Below, piece after piece: positions 3 through 36,640 of a stretch of 37,387 nt of DNA (its first letter is position 1; each line of letters opens with the position of its first letter). The position numbers were made by a program, and so were the translations under genes. The notes under the pieces were generated by a model. That model was not told the DNA's origin. It saw only the letters and a list, made by a program, of their open reading frames with translations, and did no database searches. The DNA lies in contig JWZX01003368.1 in assembly GCA_001275005.1 (NCBI GenBank), positions 1-37,387 on the forward strand, given 5' to 3'. This DNA comes from Chrysochromulina tobinii. Lineage: Eukaryota.

Positions 3-1090
3 CTGCTGCCTCAGGGGAACTCGCCGCGCACAAGCCTCGTGTCCGAGCGCCACGGCATCGAGTTTCGGCAGGTTTGGAAGGTGGCAAGTTCATCGCTCGC
101 CTCATTCTTCTACTGCAACATGTGGGGATCCCTGCGACTCGACAAGCTGCCGCCTAACCAGCCGTTGCCAAAGCGCGCGATGGGCACAGGTGCATCGGCC
201 CCTCGGCTCATTGCTTTCCTGTCCCGTGAGCCAATCAGCCGCTTCGTGGCCTCGTGCTTCGAGGTCCTTGTGCGGCTCCTCAATCATGTCTCGCCAAGCG
301 GGGAGCGAATGCCCGCCGAAATGTACACGGAGCCCAAGGGCCCGTTCTCGCCGAGCGTGCTGCGGCACGGCACGAGCTGGTATGGGCCGCTGCTGCGCAC
401 GCTCAATGCCTCGAGCGCATCGGAGCGAAGGCTGGAGCTCACCGCCCTCGCCAACGGCTTCATCGAAGACATCGAGTGCGCCATCGTCTACACTGCTGCA
501 GAGCATCTCGCCACCCAAATGTCGTTCATTACGAGCGGGTACGAGGAGCGCTCGACGCGCCCCGATGAGATTGCATGTTAATTGCATGTTGATAACATGT
601 AGATAACATGCTGATGGCCTCCCTCATCAGGTACGAGGAGCGCTCGACGCTCGACTTCCAAATCCGGCTGGCCAACGCGACCGTCGACCTTGAGCGGCTC
701 GGGCGGCGCATTACGTACCAAACCCTGCATGGCGTCCCGCCGCATGCCAATACCTCCGTCTGGAAGTGCGCTCTCGGCCGGGAGAATGACGCCTCGAACA
801 AGGCAAAGCTTGCGTTCAGCAAGGCTGACTTCGTTAGCGTGCTCGAGCACAACCCCGCGTTCGTGCAGCGCCTGTGCACGGTTTACATTCAGGACTATCT
901 TTGCTTGGGCTTCGCGCTGCCGCCCGAGTGCGAGGGCGGACGAGAATTGCACCAATGGCCCCATCCTCGGCGGTCGGGCCGACGCGGCGCTCCAGTATCT
1001 GCTGTCGCTGCCCCCGCTGCCATGCAGGCCGCCGTCGCAGGGGACGTCCCTTACATGCAGGGGACGACGGGTTGGCGGACAAGTCAATGA
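3..1090 (+). CDS. Sulfotransferase family 2 (HNK-1/CHST-like) protein, 5'-partial; exons <3..538, 631..1090
   Basis: Frame is open from the window edge. PAPS-binding-like motifs FRQVWKVASSSL and FLSREPISRFVAS; C-terminal LCTVYIQDYLCLGF. Removing GT-AG intron 539..630 joins ORFs 39..581 and 608..1090 in frame (ITSG|YEERSTLDF). Confidence 0.8.
539..630 (+). other. Spliceosomal intron, family A, with exon duplication (phase 2)
   Basis: GT..CAG; 538-558 identical to 630-650 (ggtacgaggagcgctcgacgc); ends ctgatggcctccctcatcag; removal restores the frame. Confidence 0.9.
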
Positions 1091-2999: not shown

Positions 3000-5900
3000 A
3001 TGGTCGCGGGCACGCCGTCCGGGCCGACGGCGTCGGCGCTGGCCTCGTCGATGCGCGCGTTGTACCCGTCGAGTGCCGACGCGACGGCCGTATCGTTGCC
3101 GACGGCGCTCATCTCGGCCGAGCGCCTGCCGCCGCCGAACCCCATGCTGCAAAAGGAGTACGCCAAGATCGGCGGCGCGGGCGCCGTACGCGCGGAGCCG
3201 GCGGCGTTACACTTTGCGGGCATCGAGATCGGCGCGGGCGGCTCGCTTGTGCAGAAGCTGCGGCTCATCAACAGCTCCGGCCACCCCATTCGCATGCACG
3301 TCCTTCCGCCGAGCACGCCCTTCTTCACGATCAGCTTCGAGAAGAAGGGCCGGCTGATGCCGGGCCTGGCCGAGGAGATCATGGTGCGCTTCGCGCCCAA
3401 CGAGGTGCGCTACTACCACGACACCATCAAGGTGCACCTCGGCGACGGCGACGAGAACTGCCTGCTGGTGCCGATCCACGCGTACCCGGCAGTCGGCGAG
3501 CTTGCCTTCCCGGCGCGCGTCGACTTCGGGATCGTGGCGCAGGGGCAGTCGCGCGAGCGCGTGCTGCCGCTACACTCGCCCGATGGCGCCGAGTTCGAGT
3601 GGCGCATCGAGGTGCGCCAACCGCACGCTGACTTTGTGATACAGCCGAGATCGGGCATCGTGCCCGCACGCGGCGAGGCGGCCATTGTCGTCACGTTCAC
3701 GCCGTCGCGTTTGGCCACGGCGCACTGCGTCTTCGAGCTGCTGATCGCGCAGCTCGGCTATGCGCCCAAAACGATCTCTCTCGTCGGCACGTCCGCGCCG
3801 CTCCAGGTCAAGGACGCGACGCTCGCCCGCTTGCGGCACAGCGAAGATGAGCGCCTGGCTTCCGAGGAGGCCGAGTTCCGGGGGCGCATGTTCCCAAACG
3901 GGGCGCGGCGGGCGGCGGGGGACGATCCGAGCTTGGACGATCCCGCTAGCGGCGCGGCGGGCGACCCGGCTCTCGCGCCCTCGGTGCTCACTGCGCCGCC
4001 CCCCACCGGCCTGATCGAAAAGATCGCCCACGAGGCGCCCTACGGCGGCGGCTCGGCGGGCGGTGACTATGTGACGCGCGCGCGCGCGGCGCAGCTGCGC
4101 GAGGCGATCGGCGACGCGTCCGTCGAGGTCAAGTACCGGGAGGAGCGCCCGTCATACCCCGAGGAAATGAAGGAGGGCTTGCGCGTGCCGCCCTTCCTCT
4201 CGAACCAGTATGCAGTCAACTCGATGCTGCTGCAGCAGCCGTATAAGATGCGGGTCTCGGACTTGCGAGTCGCCATCGAGGAGCAGCAGGCGGACGCGGC
4301 GCGCCAGCAGGAGGAGATGGAGCTCGCGGCGATGGCGAGCCTGCCAGTGCAGTCGCAGCTGCTACAGTCGCTCGGCAAGCGTGTCGATGACGTCATCGCG
4401 TACCTGTTCGCGCGCGATTCGAATGGCGTCGGAACCGTCACCCGCAAACAGTTCCTGGGCGTACGCCATTTGCTCAAGGTGGCGTGCCTGATGGCATCCC
4501 TCATCTGATGACGTGCTTGATGGCCTCCCTCATCTGATGACGTGCCTGATGGCCTCCCTCATCTGATGACGTGCCTGATTGCCTCCCTCATCAGGTGCCC
4601 ACGGCTACGGCGGCGGACATGGGCGAGTTCTTCGACGGGATGGACCACCTCAACGCGGGGGAGCTCGACTATATGCAGCTGCAACGTGTGGCCAAGCGGC
4701 GTGCGGCGACTTTGGGCGGCGGCACGGGGCGGATGGCGTCAACGTCCGTCGAGCCGGGAGAGCTCGACATCGCGCTGCAGGGCCCCGAGCGTACGCGCCA
4801 GCTCAAGGACATGCTCTTCATGAAGGAGGTGGATGCCATCGAGACGTACGAGAAGATGAAGGAGGTCAAGTCCTTCGTGGCCACCGGCCCGCCGCTGACG
4901 CAGCCGTTCATCATCGAGGCCACTCACCGCGCTCGCGACGTTTTCTACGCCGAGAAGAGGCGTGAGGAGCGCGCGGTGGCGCGCGCGCGCCAAGCGACCG
5001 AGCTGTCCGATCCGGCCAAGGTACGCGTCGAAATCTCCGAGCCCGTGGCGAAGCTTGCTGCCGACACGACGCCCAAGTTTGACTCGTATGAGGCTGAGGT
5101 GTGGGGAAAGCGCGAGGGGGTGATGTTCGACCTGCAGCTGGCGGTGCGCGTGGCCACACTACGCGCGCGCCTCAGCCGGCGCGTGGCTGCTGTGCATGCG
5201 GCGCTGGCCAAGGCCGGCATAGGGCTGCACGACAAGCACGCGGTCCATCAGCTTGTCCTCTCGCGCTCGAAGGCAGGTGGCGGCGGCGGCGGCAAGTCGG
5301 CCGGCCTCGGGAGCTCCTCAACCCTGTCCGACGGCACGGTCGGTGGTGGGGGCCTCTCCGCTCTGGCCAAGGCGGCCAAGGCTGTGGGGCTGAGCATGGA
5401 GGGCCTCGCGCCCTTCATATTTCCGGAGGCGCCCTCCAAGGGGGCAGGCGTGCCGCAGGGGGATCCTCTCCCCATCCTGCCGATTGAGCCGTTTGATGAA
5501 ACCAAGCTCTTCGCCCTTCGCGTGCCTCGCCGGTACGTGCAGATGGACTATCGCGAGGCGCTGCTGAGCGCGCCGGGCGCTTTCCCGCCAATGGTGGATG
5601 ATCGGCCGCTGCGCATCGGCGCGCCGTTTGAATCGGGCCGGTTGCTCCCGACTGGGACAGCTGTACCGGTGCCGGATACGTGGGGTCTGCCGTCGCTGCT
5701 GCTCATGCCGCCGCCGCGCCCGCCGCCGCCGCCCGAGCCCGCCGACCCAACTATGGATGACCTGTCGGCGACCAAGGCGCTGGGTGGCGACGAGGCCAAG
5801 GAGGCGGCCGGCGACGAGGAGGAAGATGCCGAGCTGTCTTGGGATGAGAAGCATCGGATGCATCTGGCCCAGCTCAAGCCGCCGATACTTGTGCAGGTGC

Positions 5901-6633
5901 ATCCGCGGGTCATGTGCCGCCCTCCTCGCGCTAATGGCCTCCCTCATTGCATGCTGATTGCCTCCCTCATTGCATGCAGGTGCATCCGCGGGTCATGTGC
6001 CGCCCTCCTCGCGCTGTGGAGACGGATGCGCGTCAGATGTTCCGCCCGATGCCGCTCACCTGCAACGAGTTTTGGAAGGCGGAGCCGATCGGCTTCGGAT
6101 CGGGCCTTGTGCTGCTCGAGGCCGCCTCCCTCTCAAGCGTGTGGCGGCGTACGGCGGACCCCTGGGCGGATGCAGTCGCCGAGCTACCCGAGCGAATGGA
6201 GGACGTCAACCCGCCCGACGCCGCAAAGGAGCTGTCGGAGGACGAGAGCGATACCGAGATCGACCCGTCGTTGCTCTTCCCGCCCTCGCTGGATAAAGTC
6301 GGCCAGATTTTCGACTTGCCGACGCTGCCGGAGGCCGGTACCCTTTTGCCCAACGAAGCCGCCGGCTCGGCCGCGGCCGCCGTGGACGCGAAGCAGGCGT
6401 CGCCGGCGGCGGCGGCGTCTGAGTCGGTCGACGATGGCGACGTGTCGATCGCGCCCGAGCGCGACCTCATCGTCGATGCTCAGTCGGAGCGAGCGCGCGC
6501 CGAGGCGGACCTCGAGCTGCAGGCCCGCCAGGCGCGACGCATGCAGAGGCTCCGGCTGCGCGAGCAGCTCGCCGCGCTCAACGAGCACATCGAGCAGCCT
6601 CGCCACCAACTGAGCCTCACGCAAGGAGCCTAA
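3000..6633 (+). CDS. CFAP221: Cilia- and flagella-associated protein 221 (PCDP1); exons 3000..4478, 4595..5896, 5980..6633
   Basis: Tandem ASH/PapD-like domains with CFAP221 signatures (LHFAG, HVLPPSTPFF, RYYHDTIKVH, LLVPIHAYP, QPRSGIVPA, LSNQYAVNSMLLQQPYKMRVSDLR). Two phase-0 introns join ORFs 2895, 4571 and 5947. EF-hand-like pair flanks intron 1. Start codon uncertain (2895/3000/3051). Confidence 0.88.
4479..4594 (+). other. Spliceosomal intron, family A, built of four tandem 29-nt units (phase 0)
   Basis: AAG|GTGGC followed by three (gtgcytgatggcmtccctcatctgatgac) units and gtgcctgattgcctccctcatcag|GTG; frame restored. Confidence 0.92.
5897..5979 (+). other. Spliceosomal intron, family A, with 41-nt perfect duplication (phase 0)
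   Basis: 5892-5932 identical to 5975-6015; insert aatggcctccctcattgcatgctgattgcctccctcattgcatgcag; frame restored. Confidence 0.92.
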
Positions 6634-6970: not shown

Positions 6971-6994
6971 GACTTGACTTGACTTGACTTGACT
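6971..6994. repeat. (GACTT)n = (TCAAG)n pentamer microsatellite upstream of an ATG
   Basis: gacttgacttgacttgacttgact read directly. Confidence 0.9.
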
Positions 6995-8814: not shown

Positions 8815-9044
8815 AGGGTCCCGTGCCCCTTGTTCTTCAATTCACAACGCAACAAAAACGCTTCTTACGCACGCGATGTGCAACGCAAACTGCGCTCACA
8901 TTCTACCAATACACCTCGGAAATAACGACAGTAAAGTTCAGCGAGTTTTTGGGATTTGGGTTGAACGACGATGGTCTTCCTGGGCGCGGACTCCGACGGA
9001 CGGGCGGCCTCTTCCCTCGTGCCGCTCTGGCGCGCGCGGGGAGG

Positions 9045-12000
9045 ATGAAGGCGGCCGTCACGGAGCGGCCGGGCGCGAAGGCGGCCGTCACGGAGCGGCC
9101 GGGCGCGATGCTCAAAGGAGCTCCGCCACCGCCGCCAGCCAAAGGCGCGCCTTCGGGCAAAGGCGTAGCCGCCGGCGCTGTTGCTCCAACAGCCCCTCCA
9201 CCGAGCAAGATCAGCACCTTCCGGCAAGGCGACCGTTGTGCGGTGAAGAGTGATACAGTCAGCGGCACAGGCGTGATTCAGTTCGTTGGCGAGGTTGCAT
9301 CGTTAGGCCCTGGGATGTGGGTGGGGGTGCTTCACGATGAGCCCGTTGGGACCTCGAACGGTGTCATCGACGGCCGGCGGCTCTTCGCGTGCCCCAACAA
9401 GCACGGCGGATTCTACGCCGTGCACGAGATTCGTGTGGACAAGCACGCCGATGAGAAGGCATCCGGCGGTGTCCCGAAGGCGTCCGGCGGTATCCCGCAG
9501 TCAACTGCGTCACCGTCTGGGGCCGTCGGTGACGAGGCTGGTCCCTCGGTCCCTTGCGCGGCGACGAGTGTCGCTGCGGGCCGTGGCCTGCATACGGCCG
9601 TGGTGGCACAGCTCTCGCAGATTACGATCACGTGCAACGATGCGTATGGGCGACGAACGAGCGGCGGGGATTCCCTGAGCGTCATCGTGCGTGGCGTCAG
9701 TCCACCGACGCAACTGCGCGTCAAGCTGCACGACCACGGCAAGGGAGTCTACGTGGCAGAGTACCGCGCGGAGCTCTCGGGCCAGCTGCTGATCGCGGTG
9801 TGCATCCGAGGCGAGGCCGTGCCAGGAAGTCCCTTCTCGGTGGAGGCGTTGTCGCTGCACGCTGAGGCATCGCAGTGCAAGCTGAGGGGAAACGCCCTCG
9901 TGGCGGCCGTGGCGCGGAAGCCGATGGCGTTTGAGATCGACTTTGTCGATGCGCTCGGCAACCCCGCGGCGGCCGAGGAACTCGACGTGCGGCTCGAGAG
10001 GGCGGAGCCCCTGCCGCCGGAGGCGGCGCCCGTCGGCATTGATGGTGACGAGGGACAGGATGCCGAGGCGCTGGCGGAGGAGAAGGCCGCGTTCGAGGAG
10101 CGCCTCGCTGCGGTCGGCACGCTTTGCGTCCTCCTGAGCAAGGCGTCGGGACTCGACTCGGCGGATCTGAACGGCAAGAGTGACCCGTACGTCGTACTGC
10201 TGTGCGCGGAGCACAAGGCGAAGAGCACGATCAAGCCCAAGACGCTGAGCCCCGTGTGGAACGAAGACTTCTCGTTTGCTGGTACGCTCCAGTCCTTTGT
10301 CACGTCGGGCCTGATGGTCAAGGTGTACGACTGCGACAATCCTCTCAAGCCGGAGAAGGATGATCTCCTCGGCGAGAAGCTCGTGTCCCTCGACAGCTTG
10401 AAGCATCAGAACACGAGCGAGTTAGTCGAGTTCCTGTCCCTCCAGGTAAAGGGGGAAACTAAGCCCGTGCCCAAGGGCAAGGTCATGCTCACGGTGACGT
10501 GGCAGCCGCCGCCCGGTGCGGAGGACGATGACATGAGCGCGAAACTGCTCGTGGGCGACGAGCGGGTGAGAGGATCGCGCCCTCTGATTGCCTCTGATGA
10601 CCGTTTGATGACACCCCTCATCGGCGTGCTGCAGGTGGTGAGGGGATCGCGCCCTCTGATTCTGCGCGAGCGTTGTGAGAAGAACTCGGCGGTGCTGTGC
10701 ATGCTACCCCCAGGCTCCCGGCTGCAGCTTCACGAGCTCAGGGAGATGAGTGACGGTACCCGTGCGCGCGTGCGCGTGGTCAGCTTCTCGGACCCGGTCT
10801 TCGGAGCTTCTTCGAAACTCAAGACCGCACGCCCCGCGGCGACCGCTCGGCTACCCGCACCCGCCCTTCCAGTTGGCGAGTAGCTCATTGGATGGGTCAC
10901 AGCATGGTACGCCAACGGGCGACGCATGCTGGTCAAGAGGCATTTGAAGCTCGACGCGAACGAGCGGCGCCGGCAGCTCGAGCTGTGGAACAAACGGACC
11001 TTTGACGAGAGGGCGCTGATGCAGCTCCAGGGGAAGGAGAAGGCCCAAGGCAAGGAGAAGGAGTTCAACGTGGGCTCGAGCTTCGTGCATGAGCTCGCTG
11101 AAGGCCCTCGTAAGATCGCGTTCGCGTGCGGCGGCGTCTTCCCGGGCACGCTCCACGCGCACGGCGCGCTGATCAAGACGCACCAAGTGTCGTACAGCGT
11201 CGGCGCTGCGGGCAAGTACCTGATGCACGTGGGCCTTCGCCAGCAGTCGGTGGTGCTTCCAGGCTCCCCGTTTGCTCTCGAGGTGAAGCCCGGTCCCGCG
11301 CACACTGAAGACCTCTGATGACCTCTGATGACCTCTGATTGAATCTGATGGCATCTGATTGCCTCCCAGGTGAAGCCCGGTCCCGCGCACGCGCCGTCGA
11401 CCAAGTTTCCCGAGGACGTGCTGCCGCTGCAAACGGTGGTCGGCACCCAAGGAAGGCTTGTCGTCCACTTATCCGACTGCATGGGCAACAAGTGCATCGA
11501 AGGCGGCGCTCATCTCGAGGTCTCGGTCAACACGAACGGCGCGCCCAAGGCCGCTCTCACGTGTAAGTGCGACGACCAGCAGGACGGCACCTTCCTAGTC
11601 ACCTGGTCCAGCGAGGTAAGCCACAAGTTGCATGCTCGAGCTCAAGATCCACAGCATGCATGTGCTCACCACGACGCTCCACCACTTCCCCACAGGTGAG
11701 CCACAAGTACATGCTCGAGCTCAAGATCCACGGGGTGCACATCGTCGGCTCCCCGGCGCCGCTGACCCTGCTTCCTGGAGACCTCGAGGTGAGCCGCTGC
11801 TCGCTGCTCGCGCCTCGCGAGGCTGTCGCGGGCGTCGCGAGCCTGGTCGAGACCAAGTGTTGCGACGCGTATGGGAATGAGGTTGCGCCGGACGTACTCG
11901 CGGGCCATGCGCCACCCTTTGGACTCCTCCTCGTGCCCGCGCTGCTCAAGGGCGTCAGCGGGCCGACCGGCAAAGACGGACGGGACGTCGAGGAGAAGCG

Positions 12001-13599
12001 CGGTCCCAACAAGGGCGACCACGTGGACGAGAAGCGCCGCGCAGCCCTGCTCAAGAAGGAGGAGCGCGCAAACCTCGTCAAGACGCTCGACACGATGAGC
12101 TTCCATGGCTCGTGGGACGGGTCCCGAATGAAGATGAGCTTCGTGCCCAAAGAGGCCGGCGACTTTGAGTTGCATGTTTGGTGCGAGCCCAACACAATTG
12201 GGGTTCGTCAGTTCCTTCCAGGCTGCCCGACGATGATACACGTGAAACCGGGGCGTGCTAGTGCGATTGGTTCGCATGTCCGATCCGATGGCGCGTCCGT
12301 CGCGCTGCTCACCGCCGGCGACAAGCTCGCCCTTAAGGTCCAGTGGCTGATGAGCTTTGATTGCCTCCCTCATCAGGTCTGATGAGCTTTGATTGCCTCC
12401 CTCATCAGGTCCAGATCTGCGACGAGTTCAACAACTTCGTCTCCCTCGCATCGGCGTCTGATATGACCTCGATGCTCGAGACGCCCATCGGGCAGCTCGC
12501 GCTGATCCAGAAGACGAGCGAGAAGCTCGAGGATCACAAGGAGGGCGACAAGAAGAAGCACAGCGTCGCCGCCGGCTCGTCCGCGGTCGGGCTGTACGAG
12601 ATCGTGAGCCCGGGCGAGCTCACTGTTAAGGGTGCGCATAGGGTATCGATCCAGCTCTTCGGCGAATCGATCACGGGCGCGCCCATCAATATTATGGTGG
12701 CGCCCGGGCCGCCAGTCTATCATAAGAGCTACCTCGAGGCCAAGGGTAGCCGACAGGAGATCGATTCTCCCATCGACGTCATCCTCCATCTTCTCGACAA
12801 GTACGGCAATCGGTGCGAGCAGGGCGGCGTACGCGTGGACGCGAAGGCGTACGGCTCCAAGGCGAGCGAGGCCAAGGTGATCGACAATCCGAACTGGCCA
12901 TTGATGGCGCCCTTCATCAGCCTCCCTCATCAGCCTCCTTGATTGTACCTTGATTGCCTCCCTCATCAGGTGGTCGACAATTCGAACGGGACCTTTTCGA
13001 TCTCGTTCAGCGCGGCGGTCCCGGGCGATTACAAGGTCCAATGCCGCCTCGAGAATGCAGACTTGCAAGTGCTGCAGCTACACGTCCTCGAAAAGGGCGA
13101 GAAGGCCGACAAGGCGGATTACGATGAGGAGATAGCGCCAGCCCTCAGAGCCCTCGCCAGCTCCAAGCCTCCAGCCCCTCCAAAGTCCGCAAGGTCAGCC
13201 TCGTCACCGACTTCGTCGGTGGTCACGGCGCCTTCAGCGCTGCCACCGGCCCCCATGATGCCCCCGCGGCCACCTGACGGCATGTCGGGTCCGGAAGCCG
13301 CCCTAGTCAAGCAAGATGCAGACGCAGCCAAGAAGAAGAGCAAAGAGAAGGGCAGCAAGACTGGCCGTGAAGAGAAGAGCGCCCGTGAAGAGAAGGGCGC
13401 TCGTGAAGAGAAGGGCGCTCCGAGCGCCACGAGCGCCGTGACGAGCGCTACCGAGGACGAGAGCACCAAGAAGACGGCCCGGGCCGGTAGCGGCAAGGGC
13501 ATCAAAACTGGGCGCGAAAGTACTGCGAGCAGTCCACCAACACCAAAGAAGGACGCCGCCAAGAAGGGTGGTAGTAAAACCGTGAGGGTGGTTGGATGA
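9045..13599 (+). CDS. Multidomain CAP-Gly + filamin(Ig)-repeat + C2 + SH3-like protein; exons 9045..10565, 10635..(in-frame TAG 10881-10883)..11282, 11370..11615, 11696..12337, 12409..12876, 12970..13599
   Basis: CAP-Gly (GVIQFVG..GMWVGVLHDEPVGTSNGVIDGRRLFACPNKHGGF); filamin repeats (DHGKGVY..GSPFSV, DQQDGTF..HIVGSP, DNSNGTFSISF..PGDYKV); C2 (ADLNGKSDPYV..KTLSPVWNEDF..KVYD). Five phase-0 GT-AG introns join successive ORFs; one unresolved in-frame TAG. Confidence 0.8.
10566..10634 (+). other. Spliceosomal intron, family A variant, 69 nt, in-frame and stop-free (phase 0)
   Basis: CGG|GTGAG...CTGCAG; 10566-10589 matches exon 10638-10661 with 1 mismatch; contains ctgattgcctctgatg and cccctcatcgg. 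Confidence 0.8.
11283..11369 (+). other. Spliceosomal intron, family A, 10-nt repeats plus 23-nt perfect duplication (phase 0)
   Basis: 11281-11303 identical to 11368-11390; insert (ctgatgacct)n...ctgattgcctcccag; in-frame TGA stops removed by splicing. Confidence 0.92.
11616..11695 (+). other. Spliceosomal intron, family B, ~36-nt diverged duplication (phase 0)
   Basis: gtaagccacaagttgcatgctcgagctcaagatccac vs exon gtgagccacaagtacatgctcgagctcaagatccac; ends gcatgcatgtgctcaccacgacgctccaccacttccccacag. Confidence 0.9.
12338..12408 (+). other. Spliceosomal intron, family A, two identical 30-nt units with internal AG|GT (phase 0)
   Basis: ctgatgagctttgattgcctccctcatcag at 12347-12376 and 12379-12408; aggtccag at both junctions; frame restored. 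Confidence 0.9.
12877..12969 (+). other. Spliceosomal intron, family A, ~18-nt diverged duplication (phase 0)
   Basis: gtgatcgacaatccgaac vs exon gtggtcgacaattcgaac; ends ttgattgcctccctcatcag; in-frame stop removed by splicing. Confidence 0.9.
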
Positions 13600-13856
13600 G
13601 ACGTCAGCAACAGTCACCTAGGGGCAACCTGGCAAGACCCGCGCAGCACACGCACATCAGAACGGCATGCCTCCCAGCGCAGTATTGGAAATTGCCGTGC
13701 GAGGTGCGAGCCGGATGCGGATCGCGTATTCCATCTAGTTAATTACCGAACGACCGGGTACCTCTTCAGGTGTCAGGAGGTATAGTACGTGTTCGACAAT
13801 CGCGTATTCGATAACGTACTGAGTCGTGAGTGAAACTGAGTGCAGAGTAGACACTC

Positions 13857-16587
13857 TTAGAGGGTGACGAGGGGTGCCTCGCCTCCTGCCGCGTCGCTGG
13901 ATCGGTGCTTGCGGCGGCGGCGCTTCTCCTTCGGCGCCCCGGCATCCTCAGGCTGCGCGGGCGCTCCGAACGCCTCCCCGTCCGCGTCTCCGAGCAGGTT
14001 GACAAGGAACGGCCCCTTTGCATGGCTGAGCAGGGCTTTGGACGGCGCAGCCAGCGGCGTGGCTGCGGTCGCTCCTGCGCCGCCGGCCATTTCAGGCACG
14101 CGTCGCTCGTCGTCATCGTCATCGTCGCCGGCCCCTTCGGGCATGGCTTCGTCAAGATCAACGGCCGTAACGGCCTCCTCGTCTCCGAATGCATGCGTAC
14201 CGCCTGCCATATGAGCCAAGTCGCCCGCGCCCGCAGCGGCGCCGCCCCTGCTGCTAGCGCCGCTGCCAGTGGTGGTGGCACCTTCGGAGTACATTAGAGA
14301 CGGCTCTGCCGCGCCGGGCAGCGCGGTGCTCGGCGGGCCGGCAGGCTCGTCCGTCGCCAGGTAGTACGGGCCGGCGCGCCCGGGGCGTCGTGCGCCGTCG
14401 GAGGAGGCGGAGGTGGCACTGCCCGGATAGGCGGTCGGCGTGGAGGGCGTGGAGGGCGCGGCGGGCGCGGTTGGCGGCGGCGGCGGCGTGTACAGGGGCG
14501 TGTGTAGGTCAAGGTCCGCTGGCGGCTTCACCTTACGCTGAGCTTTTGGGGCCACCGCCCGGAGCTCCACCGTGAGACCCTGCCGCAAGGCCGCGAGCAG
14601 CCGCAGCGCACTCGGCTCGGGCCAGCTCGGATCGGGCCCACCACCCGCACTCGGATCGGTCCAGCTCGGCTCGCGCCCACCCAACGCGACGGCGCCCAAC
14701 GCGGCGGGCGCGTGCATCAGCTTGGCCGAGCTCCCGAGCTCGGCGCCGTGTCGGGCGTGCGCACCGGCGCCGAGCACGAGCACGAGCACCTCAGCGGCCG
14801 AGGTGGCGCGTTCGCTCACCTCGAGGTGCGGGGAGGCATAGAAGCGGCACAGCGCGCCGTACGTGGAGCGCACGAGCGCTCGCAGCGCCGCGGCCTCGTC
14901 CCCTTGGCACGTCGCGCCGGGTCGATCGAGCGTGGCGAGGGCGCTCTCTACCTTGGGCAGGTGGACCAGAACGCGGGGGGCCGCCTGCACGCATGCCGCC
15001 TGGACAGACGGGGAGAGTGAAGCCACCGCTGGGCACAGGAGCACCTCGAGTGACCGAAGCTGTGAAGACGGTGGCAGCTGTGAAGAGTGCTCGCCCAAGA
15101 CCCAGGCGGCCGCGTACAGCGTGGCATCCGGCTGGAGCAGGCCGGGCAGGGAGGCGCCCGCCATTTGGTCGAGCGCCGTCTCGAGCACCTCGAGTGCCTT
15201 CTCCGCCGCAAAGCCGCGTACGGACTGTACGCGGAGCGTCACCTCGACGAGGAGCTGCGCCACGTCAGCATCGTGCTTCGAGGGGAGCGCCGCGAGCGCA
15301 AAGAGCGTCGTGACGAGCCAGCGGAAGGACGGCACGTGGGAGAAGCTCTCGGCCTTCACAGCCGCCAGGAGAACCTCAATCACCTCGTCGCGATACGAGC
15401 TCTCGCTAGTGTACAGCTGTCCCATCAGCTTCGCGACCAGCCCCGGCAGGCTCGCGCGGCTGACCATCCCCGAGATCAGGCTGAGAGCGCGTTGACGAAC
15501 CGTCGGCTGGTCGTCGAGGCATTTGAGAATCGCGTCGCGGCAAGGCTCGACCAACGCCTTGTCCGCCCTCTGAAGCTCCGCGAGCGCGAGCAGCCCGAGG
15601 GCCTGCAGGTTCGGGTCGCTCGTCTCGATGAAGCCCTGAAGGTGCGTCGCAGTCAGCTGCGCGAGCTGAGGGCTCGAGTCGGCCATCGTCGAGGCGACCG
15701 TGTACAGGCATTCAAACTGGAGCGATTTGGCGGGAGTCGTCTCGATCAAATGGGTGAGGGGCTGGACGAGCTTCTTGGCGAGCCGCGGCTCATGGGGCAC
15801 GAGCTGCCGAAGGAACTTGACCACCTTAATGAGCGTCCAGTTGGAGGACGAGGTGGTGAGCACCTGTGGGGAGACGCGAGGGCGCCGTAGTCAGCACTTG
15901 CATGCAGAGTGGCGTCCGGTGAAAGGACGAGGCAGTGAGCACCTGGTAGAGCGCGGGGGCTAGCCCGAGGTACCCTTTGGGATTCTCGGTCGCGAGCTCG
16001 GTGAGCACGTTGACGGTGCACGAGACGACGTTCGGATCAGGGTCGTCGAGCTTCTCGCGCAGCCGCGGGAACGCGGTCGGCAGCGCCTCGGGCAGACGCC
16101 GCAGCAGCCGGTACAGCGCGATGACCGCCTTTTTGCGCACGAGAGGGCGCGACGAGGAGAGCAGATTGGTCACGTCCTGAAGCAGGTCGCGCGAGAGGTC
16201 GGGCGTCGCCATGACTGAGAGGCTGTTGAGCGCGAGCGACGCGTCGTGGTGCACCGACGACGCGAACGACTTGCGCAGCAGGTTGGTCGTGAGCAGCATG
16301 ACGTCCGTCGCATCCGTGAAGGTCTGCGCGGCGGCGAGGTAGCCGATGCGCTTCCCGCGAAAGCGCGGCGAGGCCATCAGGTCGACGAAGTGAAAGGCGG
16401 CCCACGAGACGTCCTGGCCGAGCATGTGCATGTACATGAGCTTGAGCACTGCATGCTGCTTGACCGTCGTGTCCGTGCTCGAGAGCTCGCCCTTGCACTC
16501 GGTGATGCAGGTGGCAAGGTACGCGGCCTCGTTTTGCGGGTTGGCGCGGATGCCTTTGATCATATCGTTGAGTGTCTTCTCGAACAT
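13857..16587 (-). CDS. AP3D1: AP-3 complex subunit delta (adaptin); exons 16587..15943, 15863..13857
   Basis: MFEKTLNDMIKGIRA...KRIGYLAAAQTF...VRKKAV...LDDPDP..V..ELATENPKGYLGLAP..YQ|VLTTSSSNWTLIKVVK..EPRLAKKL..VAPKAQRKV matches delta-adaptin. Confidence 0.95.
15864..15942 (-). other. Spliceosomal intron, family B, 19-nt duplication with 2 mismatches (phase 0)
   Basis: Minus strand: CAG|gtgctcactgcctcgtcct...gcatgcaagtgctgactacggcgccctcgcgtctccccacag|gtgctcaccacctcgtcct; restores the conserved AP3D frame. Confidence 0.93.
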
Positions 16588-16687
16588 GGCTGCAAAGAGT
16601 TGGAGCAGTGCTCACTGGCGATGGCAATCGTCCGGCGCGGGCGCCTGCGACGGCTTTCCTCCTTCGCACTTGACAAAAGAGGGCAAA

Positions 16688-16711
16688 TCAAGTCAAGTCA
16701 AGTCAAGTCAA
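16688..16711. repeat. (TCAAG)n microsatellite in the divergent intergenic region between AP3D1 and the methyltransferase
   Basis: tcaagtcaagtcaagtcaagtcaa read directly. Confidence 0.9.
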
Positions 16712-16894
16712 AGAACGCTCATCCCTCGCCCGGCACGCATGCACGCAACCGAGTTTCAAACGAGACAGACTTTCGTGGGGCATACATGTACATGTTTAGG
16801 GTCTGCAGGCCGCAATTGCCCCAATTGGAAACCAACACATGGGGATTTTTCTCCGTAGAGGGCCGGCACAACCTCAGGAGTCCCACGTACGCCA

Positions 16895-18291
16895 ATGCTG
16901 TCTGTCGCTGTGGCCTGTTGCCCGGTCCTCGGTTCCAGTGCAACAGTCGCTGTGGCAATGGCCTGTACTGCACCGCGATCGTGCACCTCGTCGATGCTGT
17001 CAAAGCTGGAAGGAACCTCGTGGCACCCTTCTGTGGACGGTGCTGCCGCATTCGTTACCTTCACGGACGAAATGTACGAGGCGATGCTGCACGACGACGC
17101 TCGCACATCGGCCTTCGGACTAGCGATAAGCCGGAGGGTGCGTGCACACGCGGGCGACTGCGTCGTCCTCGACCTGGGAACGGGCCCATTTGCAGTGCTG
17201 GCCCTCTTCGCTGCGCGTGCAGGCGCCTCAAAAGTGTTTGCCGTCGAAGCCAATCCGGAAGCCGCGGCGAAAGCCCGCGCCTTGATCGCGAGCTCTGCAG
17301 CGTCTGACATTCCGCCAGGAACGATTGAGATAATCGAGGGCTTCTCGACGACGATCACGCTGCCGGAGCAGGCCGACCTGCTCATCTCCGAGATTGCGGG
17401 CTCGATTGCATCCGAAGAGGGCATGTTGGCCACGATCCGCGACGCGAGGCTGCGGCACATGAAGCGGCCGTGGGATCCCCGCTCCTATATCCCCGCCCGC
17501 GTCCAAACGCTCGCCGTACCTGCCGCCTACAGCCTTCACCACCGGCTCAATTGCGATTGGATCGCCTCTGGCCCTCCTGTGAGGTTTGCGTGCGACAACC
17601 CGTGGCTGCTCCCGCTCGCGACACCGCAGCTGTGGGAAGACTTTGCCTTCGGAGGCGAGGAGCTGCCGCCTGGATCGGGTGCGCGTTGCACGACGGTGCT
17701 CGAGTTCCGCGTGTGCGCGTCCACCCTCAAGGCCAACGCAGCTCGCTTGCTCGAGCAGCTCGATCTGCACGACGTCGACGCGGACCGAGCCGGTGTGCCC
17801 AAGCAAGGCCGCTCACAAAACCCTGCGCGCTGCGCCATGCCCTGCGCGGCCCGCCCCGAGCAGCTCGCCGATAGCTCGCCGAGCGCCTCTGATTATACTC
17901 CGATGGCCGCTGATTGCGACGGATTGCATGTTTGCTTCCCTCATCAGGTGCCCAAGGCCGCTCACTCGCGCAGCTCGCCGAGGACGTGGCGCACTCTCTG
18001 TCCGGGCTCGCCTGCTGGCCACGCCTCGTGCTCGATGAAGGCGGTGGTGGACCAGTCGACGAGCCCCCCATCCCTCCCATCGTCATCGAATCGCGCGGCA
18101 TGCGCGGAGAACCCTTTCGTAGCCATTGGCAAACGGTGCTCCCGTTGCTGTCGACGAGGCCAACGCCGGTCAAGGCGGGTGCGCTCATCTCAGTGAAGGC
18201 GACTGTTGAACTGAGCATGGACGTTGAGTTGCCGCCCTATTATGAGATCGAGGCTTCCATAGAGTACCCATGTGATGGCGCGCTGCCCTGA
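16895..18291 (+). CDS. PRMT-like SAM-dependent protein methyltransferase; exons 16895..17792, 17948..18291
   Basis: YEAMLHDDARTSAF, VVLDLGTGP, KVFAVEAN, ADLLISEIAG..EEG (double-E loop) and SHWQTV (THW-like loop) after the intron. Start codon uncertain. Confidence 0.85.
17793..17947 (+). other. Spliceosomal intron, family A, with fragmented exon duplication (phase 1)
   Basis: Contains gtgcccaag, caaggccgctcac and gcagctcgccga from the downstream exon; ends ctgattgcgacggattgcatgtttgcttccctcatcag; donor at 17793 restores the frame. Confidence 0.8.
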
Positions 18292-18597
18292 GAGCTTCAA
18301 TTTCAAATGAAAAACTCCTCCGAGAGCTAGCGAAACTTAGAAGTTACTGAAGAAGCGTGTTCACAGGCGAACTTTCGAAGTGCATCCTGGTGCGAAATCG
18401 GACCCGGCCGAGTGCGTCCTGGGCGAGCAAAAGGGCCCTCTACAGACTCTTGGCCCACCCTCCTGCTGAAGCGGATGACGCGCGCCAACATCTGGACGCC
18501 TCGCAAGTCAACGCTCCTCTACTCGTCACCATCATCGCCGCCGCTCGCTGGCTTTCCAATCCGGCATTGCGGGTTCCGGTCGTGGGGCGCTGCGCTC

Positions 18598-20380: not shown

Positions 20381-20612
20381 TCTCCCCTGATCACCTTACC
20401 TGTCTTCCGACGCCAACGATCCGACGCCCTTGCCAGGTCCAGTCTCCCCTGATTACCTTACCGGTCTTCCAACGCCGACGATCCGACGCCCTTGTCAGGT
20501 CCGATTCCCCTGAGTACCTTACATCCTCTGACGCCGACGATCCGACGCCATGCCAGGTCCAGTCAGCAGTCTCCCCTGATTACCTGTCCTCCGACGCCGA
20601 CGATCCGACATC
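20381..20612. repeat. Tandem array of four imperfect ~62-nt units
   Basis: Unit tctcccctgatyaccttacc..tcttccracgccracgatccgacgcccttgycaggtcc starts at 20381, 20443, 20505 and 20570 (partial). Confidence 0.9.
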
Positions 20613-20630
20613 ATTCATGCGCGTACGCTT

Positions 20631-20729
20631 TCCCTGATTGCATGCTGATGGGGCCCTCCCTCATCATGGCATGCCCATGGCCCTCCCTGATTGCATGCTG
20701 ATGGGGCCCTCCCTCATCATGGCATACAG
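20631..20729 (+). repeat. Orphan family-A-like element: two 42-nt copies (period 53) ending in ACAG
   Basis: tccctgattgcatgctgatggggccctccctcatcatggcat at 20631 and 20684, same vocabulary as the family A introns. Confidence 0.8.
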
Positions 20730-21481
20730 GCGATCGTGCCGATGTACCCCGGCGGGCGTCAACGTTCCGAGCCACAGCCCTGAGCCCAGAGACCACAGAA
20801 TCCTCGTCGTCGTCGTGATTCATGTCGAACGGGCTCAATCGCGAACGGGGTGTTTCGAAGGTAAGAGCGAAAGGTATCCGCGAAGGATTACAGCCATCTT
20901 GGCCTGCCGCGAGCTCGGGTGTGGTGGTGATGAACTCGGAATCGCCGGCGGGATGTGCAGGACCTCAACATTGGGCTCGTGGATCGCGAAGACCGTTTCC
21001 GGAGAGAGAACCTCTCCGACTATCTTGCTCTTCTTGTGATCCAGCCAGACCGTCTCATCGAACTCACTGCCAATCAAGGAGAGGCGCGCGCGCGATGCAA
21101 TCAATCGTCAATTCGACAAAAGGTGATTCTGCCCGCACGGGCAGCACGGTAGCACTGCACTCACCAAGAATTGCACTCGCGCCCGCAGTAAAGGCCGCAC
21201 CCGCACGAATTTACACGCATGGGCATCGCTGATTTGGCTAAGGGCTGAGCGAGCCGCCCTTGTGCTCGATGGGCTCGTCGCGGATCGACAGGAGCGCGCT
21301 TTCCGGAGACATTGAATGAAGGCGACTTCGTCGATTTCGTTCTTCGACACGAATGACGAAAAAGGTAATTTTCGGATTGCTGGACATTTATCTGGAAGAT
21401 TCGACAATCTTGAACTTTTGTTTAATTTCTTGTACATCCGGACCTATACACATCACACCACCTCGCACTACTCGACGTCCC

Positions 21482-22957: not shown

Positions 22958-22986
22958 TACCGGTAAAAAGACACCGGGGGAGCCGG
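22958..22986. repeat. Dispersed intergenic motif taccggtaaaaagacaccggggg..gccgg, copy 1
   Basis: 23 nt identical to 36611-36633. Confidence 0.8.
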
Positions 22987-34150: not shown

Positions 34151-34541
34151 GTGCGCCAGTGGCGGCAGGCAACCTGTGGTCGGTCATGATTATACTGCTA
34201 CTTTTCGGTATGTGTGAATCCAGTTGCTGGTTCCCCAAGTGTGTGTTTCGTCGGATCGTCGCGGACAGCGCGCACATCGTCCGTCTCCGTACTTACTACT
34301 TTCGCCTTCTACTTTGTACTTAGTACTTTCGAAACAAAGTGAAGGTCAGTTGAACCGACACGCACGCGAACGCGCACCGACCAGCCAAGTCAAGTCAACC
34401 AGGCACGCGTACGCGCACCGGCCTCGTCGTGAAAAGGTGAGATCAGAATGGACTCGAACGAAAAGGTCAGCTCGACAACGCGCAAACGTGAGGAAGCTCG
34501 AGGCGAGGCAAACCCCGTTCGCTCGGTTTGGTGCGGCCGCG

Positions 34542-36610: not shown

Positions 36611-36640
36611 TACCGGTAAAAAGACACCGGGGGGTGCCGG
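36611..36640. repeat. Dispersed intergenic motif taccggtaaaaagacaccggggg..gccgg, copy 2
   Basis: 23 nt identical to 22958-22980. Confidence 0.8.

Follow-up and report, generated by a model that had tools for sequence, protein, structure and literature searches.

The origin of new introns is a long-standing question, and the stretch of Chrysochromulina tobinii DNA analysed here (contig JWZX01003368.1, 37,387 nt; the window) raises it in a particular form: how did two introns in separate genes come to end in related sequences, each behind a copy of the start of the following exon? An earlier note on this DNA had assigned these introns, B1 and B2, to an acceptor family B, unrelated to a family A. 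Family B recurs at many unrelated sites, where a repeated 3' end and a duplicated piece of exon together form an intron, and it offers a route to new introns.

Two related introns in the window

As shown in Table 1, B1 and B2 lie in different genes on opposite strands, each sense to its host gene, an arrangement proposed in the earlier note and borne out by gene models and domain calls. The B tails (11654-11695, plus strand; 15905-15864, minus strand) were identical at 31 of 42 ungapped positions (22/30 without the last 12 nt), whereas no other 42-mer in the window, whichever the strand, did better than 25/42 against the B1 tail or 24/42 against the B2 tail, which confirms that they are related. 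The duplication architecture claimed for both held as well. Both branch-like motifs, CTCAC in B1 and CTGAC in B2, were present; the latter is a private variant, with G at that place in 0 of 170 distinct scan matches, though the pattern permitted G. A 20-nt core pattern with at most 3 mismatches matched the window twice against 0.03 expected; as the pattern was derived from B1 and B2 themselves, this count shows only that a third copy is absent.

Table 1. Features of the two family B loci and their host genes
Feature	Positions	Strand	Evidence
Host gene 1, CAP-Gly, filamin and C2 domain protein	9045..13599	+	Pfam on exon 1; spliced translation
Family A intron, 21-nt duplication, 10-nt repeats (CTGATGACCT)	11283..11369	+	
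B1 intron, 80 nt, GT-AG, phase 0	11616..11695	+	RNA joint in X14; frame restored on removal
B1 target duplication, copy 1, source of 5' GT	11616..11652	+	34/37 columns equal to 11696-11731
B1 24-nt B core with branch-like CTCAC	11654..11677	+	sharp-edged core conserved in 170 distinct matches
B1 variable pyrimidine linker and CCCCACAG acceptor	11678..11695	+	
B1 duplication, copy 2, exon start	11696..11731	+	alignment to intron start
Family A intron, short duplication	12338..12408	+	joined sequence seen in three RNA runs and in one DNA run
Family A intron, 21-nt duplication	12877..12969	+	X15 RNA contig on both sides
Host gene 2, AP-3 complex subunit delta	13857..16587	-	Adaptin_N on both exons; homologue search
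B2 duplication, copy 2, exon start	15833..15863	-	alignment to intron start
B2 element: core 15905-15882, linker, acceptor	15864..15905	-	31/42 identity to B1 tail
B2 intron, 79 nt, GT-AG, phase 0, in AP-3 delta gene	15864..15942	-	frame and homologues
B2 target duplication, copy 1	15912..15942	-	25/31 match to next exon start

Splicing of B1 was observed directly: the X14 RNA contig joined 11613 to 11694, skipping 80 nt with GT..AG ends, with 142 letters on the shorter side. Removal of B2 gave an open frame of 883 codons, and AP-3 delta homologues ran continuously over its junction in 9/9 cases, which fixes its ends. No RNA joint for B2 was among the joints listed, and its splicing is predicted from homology. 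Host gene 1 contained five duplication-type introns, four of family A and one of family B.

Anatomy of family B

A metagenome scan yielded at least 139 further B loci. Under strict matching, 88 distinct sites were found, spread over 68 contigs, that is, similar introns at many non-paralogous sites. The parts of family B are a core of 24 nt, a pyrimidine linker that is hypervariable, and CCCCACAG, placed between target duplication copies of 12-50 nt; the same core with the same edges was seen in more than 200 copies over many data sets. CCCCACAG terminated 76 of the 88 strict sites. Among 130 linkers there were 118 different ones, and linkers differed in 17/17 copies with perfect duplications. 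The duplication began at GT in 80/92 sites and a G immediately preceded the donor in 72/92. Among acceptor copies, 75/95 had a duplication score of at least 10, compared with 1.2% of swapped pairs. Intron length was narrow (65-94 nt, 5-95%); about half of each intron is duplication copied from the host exon, so that the 5' 26-50 nt (5-95%) is site-specific and similarity does not reach both intron ends. The lengths of B1 and B2 (duplications of 37 and 31 nt in introns of 80 and 79 nt) hinted at a fixed duplication length, an idea that was dropped as the metagenome copies vary.

The concern, raised in the earlier note, that the motif might be a generic 3' splice-site consensus was not substantiated: besides the metagenome loci, a prokaryote genome collection gave a single core match, which had no acceptor. 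In viral contigs a 20-mer matched once, at a contig end, and core plus acceptor not at all, so there was no sign of a viral source. No terminal direct or inverted repeats were seen by eye, and the B sequence contained no terminal inverted repeats. It formed no stable fold relative to shuffles (z 0.34 and -0.54) and ended in the pyrimidine linker and acceptor, with no poly(A) or simple-repeat tail. An Rfam search for an RNA-family head (tRNA, 5S, 7SL) on 7 of 141 loci returned two sub-threshold snoRNA matches only. Templating of the linker by the upstream exon was considered and rejected, with 326 matches to the own exon against 332 +/- 10 to other exons.

Truncated, acceptor-less and stuttered copies

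Core remnants of the 3' half only numbered 21 in 12 loci, against one clear 5'-half-only case and 0.05 chance matches per shuffle; the anchors were of unequal length and selection may enlarge this bias. Several loci had common extensions 5' of the core, which decayed in length. The 5' stop at GCATGC was sharper than random truncation predicts, an edge partly set by the search pattern. Stuttered copies ran head to tail in repeated target-core-target-core rounds, and patchwork fillers also occurred.

Cores lacking an acceptor were flanked by duplications in 39/60 cases under a loose filter, and several were joined at short shared GCGC-type words. They were sense in 29/49 (p 0.25, no significant strand bias) compared with 57/72 introns (Fisher p 0.024). 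At 2 loci they lay on the strand opposite to B introns. Since duplication-flanked cores occur without an acceptor, without a significant strand bias and on the opposite strand, insertion appears to be wider than intron sites, with selection as the filter.

Relation to family A

Within the same genes, family A introns have acceptors that differ from the B tail. The claim that the two families share only GCATGC needs correction, however: of 238 B cores, 11 followed directly on A-type repeats (on 7 of the 118 contigs), compared with 0.015% of random positions, and the 10-nt repeat type of the first family A intron in Table 1 leads into B cores at other loci. Family B stands as a second repeated family with the same duplication architecture, and these composites argue against calling it unrelated to A. 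Duplication length and identity did not differ between 14 A and 104 B introns (Mann-Whitney p 0.86 and p 0.66), the A sample being small and drawn from flanks of B copies. Because the duplications are alike and A repeats run into the B core, we favour a single machinery that uses at least two templates, which was one of two options in the earlier note; the other, two separate waves of insertion, found no support in this small sample. We infer the single machinery from these likenesses and not from an identified enzyme.

Possible mechanisms of insertion

Sites on the same contig resembled each other. In 29 such pairs the linker score was 0.51, against 0.34 +/- 0.045 for shuffled labels, and 14 minor core bases were shared, against 3.1 (p 0.0004). 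The similarity persisted when a single name-series group was taken by itself (p 0.005 and 0.001).

We favour, with a probability of about 0.5, a reading in which B is a repeat resembling an intron 3' end that is copied via an RNA template by a borrowed reverse transcriptase/endonuclease of the non-LTR or Penelope type and filtered by splicing. The enzyme would make nicks in the two strands that are offset by some tens of bases and copy the template starting at its CCCCACAG end, imprecisely across the C-rich linker, usually stopping at or just past GCATGC; fill-in would then duplicate the target. Survivors in exons would be sense copies only, with a duplication starting with GT or GC and a length reaching about 65 nt, because in these the first duplicate and the element are removed together by splicing, which leaves the mRNA exactly as it was. 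The donors would be B introns already present, frequently close by, and longer A+B templates. Such copying is supported by the variable long duplications, the fixed 3' and ragged 5' end, the shared 5' extensions, the stutters, the duplication-flanked acceptor-less cores and the narrow range of intron lengths. LINEs and Penelope-like elements are described in parts of PMC9977147 as making variable-length duplications and short 5'-truncated insertions, and an entry in supplement file 8 of PMC12130899 classes a haptophyte introner family of Pavlovales sp. as non-LTR, 'co-opt 5' carry 3''. Against it stand a rough motif search of 150 kb, covering loci and flanks, for a reverse transcriptase or long source element, which gave three unconvincing matches, the lack of a poly(A) or simple-repeat tail and, in the 7 loci searched, of an RNA-family head, the over-sharp GCATGC stop, and the absence of an intron-less B1 allele, which would have spoken for current activity, from the DNA runs X1 and X6. 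Given the linkers of the perfect-duplication copies, one master template would be insufficient without error-prone synthesis, and the neighbour similarity fits DNA-level copying equally well. It is also possible, though doubtful, that introns seed themselves, the part from branch point to AG being reverse-transcribed into nicks in the gene itself or in its neighbours, while the duplication supplies the rest. Each new intron would then be a new donor, in an RNA-based intron factory without a transposon body that would yield A, B, hybrids and perhaps the majority of the genome's introns.

The main rival to reverse-transcriptase copying, which deserves real if minor weight, is repair: a polymerase-theta-like enzyme would patch a staggered break by copying an existing, often nearby, intron 3' end and re-anneal upstream, so that the target is duplicated. 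The linkers and minor core bases shared within contigs, the stutters and patchwork fillers, the GCGC-type joints and the lack of a convincing reverse transcriptase in the motif scan all suit it, as do the new introns of Daphnia, attributed in parts of PMC4202315 to staggered breaks, in which the adjacent exon end is directly repeated at the far end of the intron as in B. The Daphnia repeats measure 4-12 bp, however, with fillers mostly of unknown, unrelated source, whereas B places one core at hundreds of sites with identical edges; the 3'-anchored polarity and the linkers, no closer to their own upstream exon than to others, also speak against repair. An unlikely reading is that nicked DNA is extended, round after round, by the core and the 10-nt A repeats through a dedicated telomerase-like reverse transcriptase that carries a small RNA as its template. 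Sharp core edges, target-core-target-core rounds, A-type repeats leading into the core and a new linker in nearly every copy speak for it, but variants shared by neighbours and long 5' extensions shared by loci imply many donors and not one RNA, and neither the RNA (Rfam, 7/141 loci) nor the enzyme (150 kb) was found. Improbable, too, is a DNA transposon, either a MITE-type introner or a Replitron-like HUH element, although the majority of classified introners are DNA transposons (entries in PMC12130899). Replitron-1 of Chlamydomonas makes variable duplications at an orientation-specific RG target, which recalls the G before the B donor, and one C. tobinii locus has a reported Replitron-like protein (parts of 10.1101/2022.12.15.520654). 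As described there, however, Replitron-1 is 0.9-3.6 kb long, has terminal direct repeats and palindromes and is under-represented in coding sequence, unlike B, which has no terminal repeats or stable fold and a ragged 5' end; its duplications also exceed the 3-8 nt of published MITE introners. Least probable is plain tandem exon duplication, with selection or gene conversion having shaped the tail into an ordinary acceptor consensus. The tail does carry branch-like, pyrimidine and AG signals and neighbours are alike, but 24 invariant bases lie far above what an acceptor consensus holds, the acceptors of family A introns in these genes are unlike B, and acceptor-less and opposite-strand cores exist. 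Unless they are assembly artefacts, the duplication-flanked cores without acceptor refute this reading.

Comparison with known intron-generating elements

Like introners that co-opt a 5' site, B supplies the AG while the duplication supplies the GT, the mRNA is exactly restored and phase 0 is favoured. Such introners have fixed duplications of 3-8 nt, often with terminal inverted repeats, whereas in B the duplication is variable and the linker hypervariable. B shares with introners the presence of similar introns at many sites and precise spliceosomal removal (by RNA for B1, by homology only for B2), and differs from the MITE type in lacking inverted repeats and a short fixed duplication. Its site-specific 5' part takes it outside the end-to-end similarity filter of the published pipeline. 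Introners of marine Chrysochromulina MAGs and other haptophytes come from the algal group to which the B host probably belongs and are of similar size, 75-108 nt among the rows listed (parts of PMC9860276; PMC12130899 supplement files 7, 8). The Pavlovales non-LTR family has a Chlamys-like match and, as B does, co-opts the 5' and carries the 3' site (entry in PMC12130899), while the figured Chrysochromulina family has a 4-bp duplication and brings its own 5' site, unlike B. In the tables of these two sources C. tobinii has 0 introner families and the listed duplications are 2-5 nt; B differs from the listed families as described, but may in sequence be the same as one of them.

The variable duplications and the 5' truncation with a fixed 3' end are traits of non-autonomous non-LTR or Penelope-like elements, though the crude motif scan of 150 kb gave no autonomous partner. 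Chlamys, Dualen and R9 have short 5'-truncated inserts, variable duplications and head-to-tail repeats like B, whereas Chlamys targets (C)n tracts and intron creation is not reported in those parts of PMC9977147 and PMC8557442. Reverse-splicing introners of the fungal type make no target duplication, unlike B, and a SINE has an RNA-derived head, which B lacked in the 7/141 loci searched. The mechanism is unassigned for about 72% of introner families (figures in PMC12130899). Since half of each B intron is a host exon copy, a filter requiring similarity at both ends would probably reject such families, and hundreds may be present in genomes recorded as having none. DNA and RNA runs exist for mixed cultures in which the host grows, which opens the mechanism to direct testing.

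Alleles, recency and reading frame

Family B was multicopy in the sequencing runs that contain the window. In DNA run X1 the contig depth over the B2 element bin was 1844, against 58-62 in adjoining bins; these values are sums over contigs, not copy numbers. B2 was crossed by one unbranched DNA contig. The DNA runs X1 and X6 contained a second B1 allele whose duplication copy is without the 1-nt gap, and no intron-less B1 allele; a 1-nt gap at 11629, considered as such an allele, proved at 97% likeness to be this second intron-bearing one. The duplications date every intron separately, and they were still perfect in 33 of 104 B introns; their identity was uncorrelated with core divergence (rho 0.13, p 0.22). 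Phase 0 was preferred (26/45). Frames were open across the junction in 45/45 introns, partly by construction, so this count carries no weight as support.

B1 and B2 in the window

Two related intron tails lie where the earlier note had placed them, at 11654-11695 (+) and 15905-15864 (−). Each is 42 nt long and 31 positions are identical without gaps, whereas any other 42-mer of the window matches the B tails at 25 positions or fewer. Both introns, B1 and B2, were found when the window was scanned for introns beginning with a copy of the exon that follows, and long reading frames were regained once the two were taken out. B1 interrupts a gene for a CAP-Gly/filamin/C2 protein (host gene 1) and B2 a gene for AP-3 delta, whose two exon pieces aligned end to end with nine of nine homologues picked from 28 matches, the closest named one being from Prymnesium parvum (45% identity), which makes a haptophyte source likely. 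The B1 and B2 cores, 4 kb apart, are unlike at all three polymorphic core positions.

Introns of family B in the window, with other introns of family A or repeats resembling introns
Feature	Position	Strand	Remarks
B1 intron, 80 nt	11616-11695	+	phase 0; first duplicate 37 nt
B2 intron, 79 nt	15942-15864	−	phase 0; first duplicate 31 nt
Family A intron or intron-like repeat	539-630	+	
Family A intron or intron-like repeat	4479-4594	+	
Family A intron or intron-like repeat	5897-5979	+	
Family A intron or intron-like repeat	10566-10634	+	
Family A intron or intron-like repeat	17795-17947	+	
Family A intron or intron-like repeat	about 20620-20730	+	

The stretch was present in eighteen runs labelled mixed culture. 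B1 was spliced in a contig of RNA run X14, in which 11613 was joined to 11694 with 80 nucleotides skipped and GT..AG ends; unspliced B1 was also present in RNA run X13. No joined (intron-less) form of B1 was found in the two DNA runs examined, and the DNA runs contained a second B1 allele with a cleaner duplicate. For B2 no splice joint was found among the matches listed; X13 and X14 contigs end at 15935, the first difference between the B2 intron and the next exon, a weak hint of splicing. Because summed DNA depth rises over both tails (1552 and 1421 versus about 83 at 97% likeness; 1844 at the tail versus about 60 at 90% likeness; these sums are not copy numbers), the B tail is repetitive in the runs containing the window.

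In host gene 1 the window allele has an in-frame TAG at 10881 (+); RNA runs X13 and X15 have a C there, which opens the frame, and X14 and DNA run X1 do not. The X1 depth over 9000-13020 is about twice that over 13019-18500, with several alleles; a second copy of host gene 1, or a divergent haplotype, is possible.

Anatomy and spread of family B

Metagenome contigs were scanned with a 20-nt core pattern that included neither acceptor nor duplication, which gave at least 139 loci; a prokaryote collection gave one core match, without an acceptor. The metagenome contigs with B also carry family A introns and may not be from the window's species. Among the matches listed (170 distinct), conservation extends beyond the pattern by 4-5 nt, reaching 92-99% at four positions, then falls off on either side, so the core is taken as 24 nt. 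The earlier note's proposal of a repeated family with duplication architecture was borne out among the matches listed: a strict acceptor follows in 95 of 159 copies with sufficient flank, and the next-exon duplication scores at least 10 in 75 of these 95, versus 1.2% of 2000 swapped pairs.

The matches listed gave 92 independent introns (relaxed core, arrays left out), 65-94 nt long (5-95%), with duplications of 12-50 nt. The duplication starts with GT in 80 and GC in 3, and is preceded by G in 72 and by AG in 34; for comparison, 148 of 541 exonic GTs follow G and 39 of 541 follow AG. Also among the matches listed, the linker is different in 118 of 130 copies and CCCCACAG stands at the 3' end of 76 of 88 strict sites, 23-35 nt from the branch-like A.

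The earlier note had suggested seeking antisense or intergenic copies. Acceptor-less cores occur among the matches listed, 39 of 60 directly flanked by a duplication under a loose filter that admitted some weak acceptors and arrays, and at two loci (L116 and L134) one lies on the strand opposite a B intron. A crude codon model built on five genes of the window scores 57 of 72 intron copies as sense, versus 29 of 49 acceptor-less copies (Fisher p 0.024, among the matches listed), and gives the acceptor-less copies a lower coding score as well; within the limits of such a model, these results fit wide insertion followed by selection.

Three loci contain arrays of 3-6 repeats (L063 1297-1620, L073 1333-1440 and L125 300-420, strand as matched) whose units are an exon start plus a B intron, or core fragments; these are either real expansions or assembly effects. 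At L001 401-449 a B core and acceptor, without a duplication, end a contig filed as viral that is probably host DNA.

Relation to family A

The earlier note had called the two families unrelated. This holds for the bulk of the sequence but not throughout: one A acceptor type ends in GCATGCAG, which matches the start of the B core, and among the matches listed an A-type repeat runs straight into 11 of 238 cores (7 of 118 contigs), versus 0.015% at random positions. The comparison of ages that it had called for gave no A versus B difference in duplication length or identity (14 A and 104 B introns, among the matches listed). Because the duplications are alike and A-type repeats lead into cores, we assign A and B a common architecture, a common apparent age and some common templates; B is tied to family A.

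Nearly all introns visible in the window are of A type (including intron-like repeats) or B. The A intron at 12338-12408 (+) has a joined form in DNA run X1 (depth 114) and in three RNA runs, the short side being just 22 letters at 90% likeness; a presence/absence polymorphism is possible.

Origin of family B and comparison with known introners

Target-primed reverse transcription characteristically leaves long duplications of variable length, a fixed 3' end, 5' truncation and stutters (PMC9977147, PMC8557442). Because family B has these features, we favour copying by this route, at a probability of about 0.5. Remnants in which just the 3' half of the core survives made up 21 entries at 12 loci among the matches listed, of which 10 come from two arrays and 2 are probably full copies that have diverged; the six 5'-half-only entries comprise four family A acceptors, one indel-bearing full copy and one clear case. 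Some unrelated sites share 5' extensions past the core. No reverse transcriptase was found in a crude motif scan of 150 kb of loci, no known RNA family in 7 loci and no special fold of the B element.

Distinct sites on the same contig are more alike than under shuffled labels. Repair-templated copying with nearby introns as donors accounts for this local likeness and for patchwork fillers, but leaves the constant core unexplained, and we hold it to be doubtful. A telomerase-like enzyme with its own template is improbable, a DNA transposon rather more so, and plain tandem duplication hardly credible.

B is a real, spliced, repeated intron-making element. Like introners that bring their own AG while the duplication supplies the GT, it behaves as an introner co-opting its 5' site; its duplications are 12-50 nt, whereas theirs are 3-8 nt (10.1101/2022.06.06.494994; 10.1101/2020.10.14.339549). 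Yet it fails the usual membership filters: the pipeline of PMC12130899 demands similarity at both intron ends, which B lacks. That source gives C. tobinii 0 introner families. Among its 15 haptophyte rows, called duplications measure 2-5 nt, and one row is classed non-LTR. Marine Chrysochromulina MAGs with introners appear in the PMC9860276 supplement. Other work describes 4-12 bp repeats at Daphnia intron gains (PMC4202315); in a broad survey (PMC11782384), repeats of 4-30 bp lie close to intron borders and have no core in common. No published family with the B anatomy was found by full-text searches, judged by their listings and the papers cited here; subscription papers and GitHub sequence sets lie outside that scope and may bear on novelty.

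Other features of the window

An intergenic 18-21 nt duplication at 34362-34420 (+) surrounds a short insert of CAAGT repeats that terminates in CAG, which may be a third template built in the same way; other CAAGT runs (6971-6994, −; 16684-16711, +) are without a clear duplication. An array of about 62-nt repeats (20381-20614, +) adjoins an A-type repeat where no gene is obvious. An identical 20-mer (0 expected by chance) occurs in two intergenic regions (22960-22979 and 36613-36632, +) and may be a transposon end or a promoter element.
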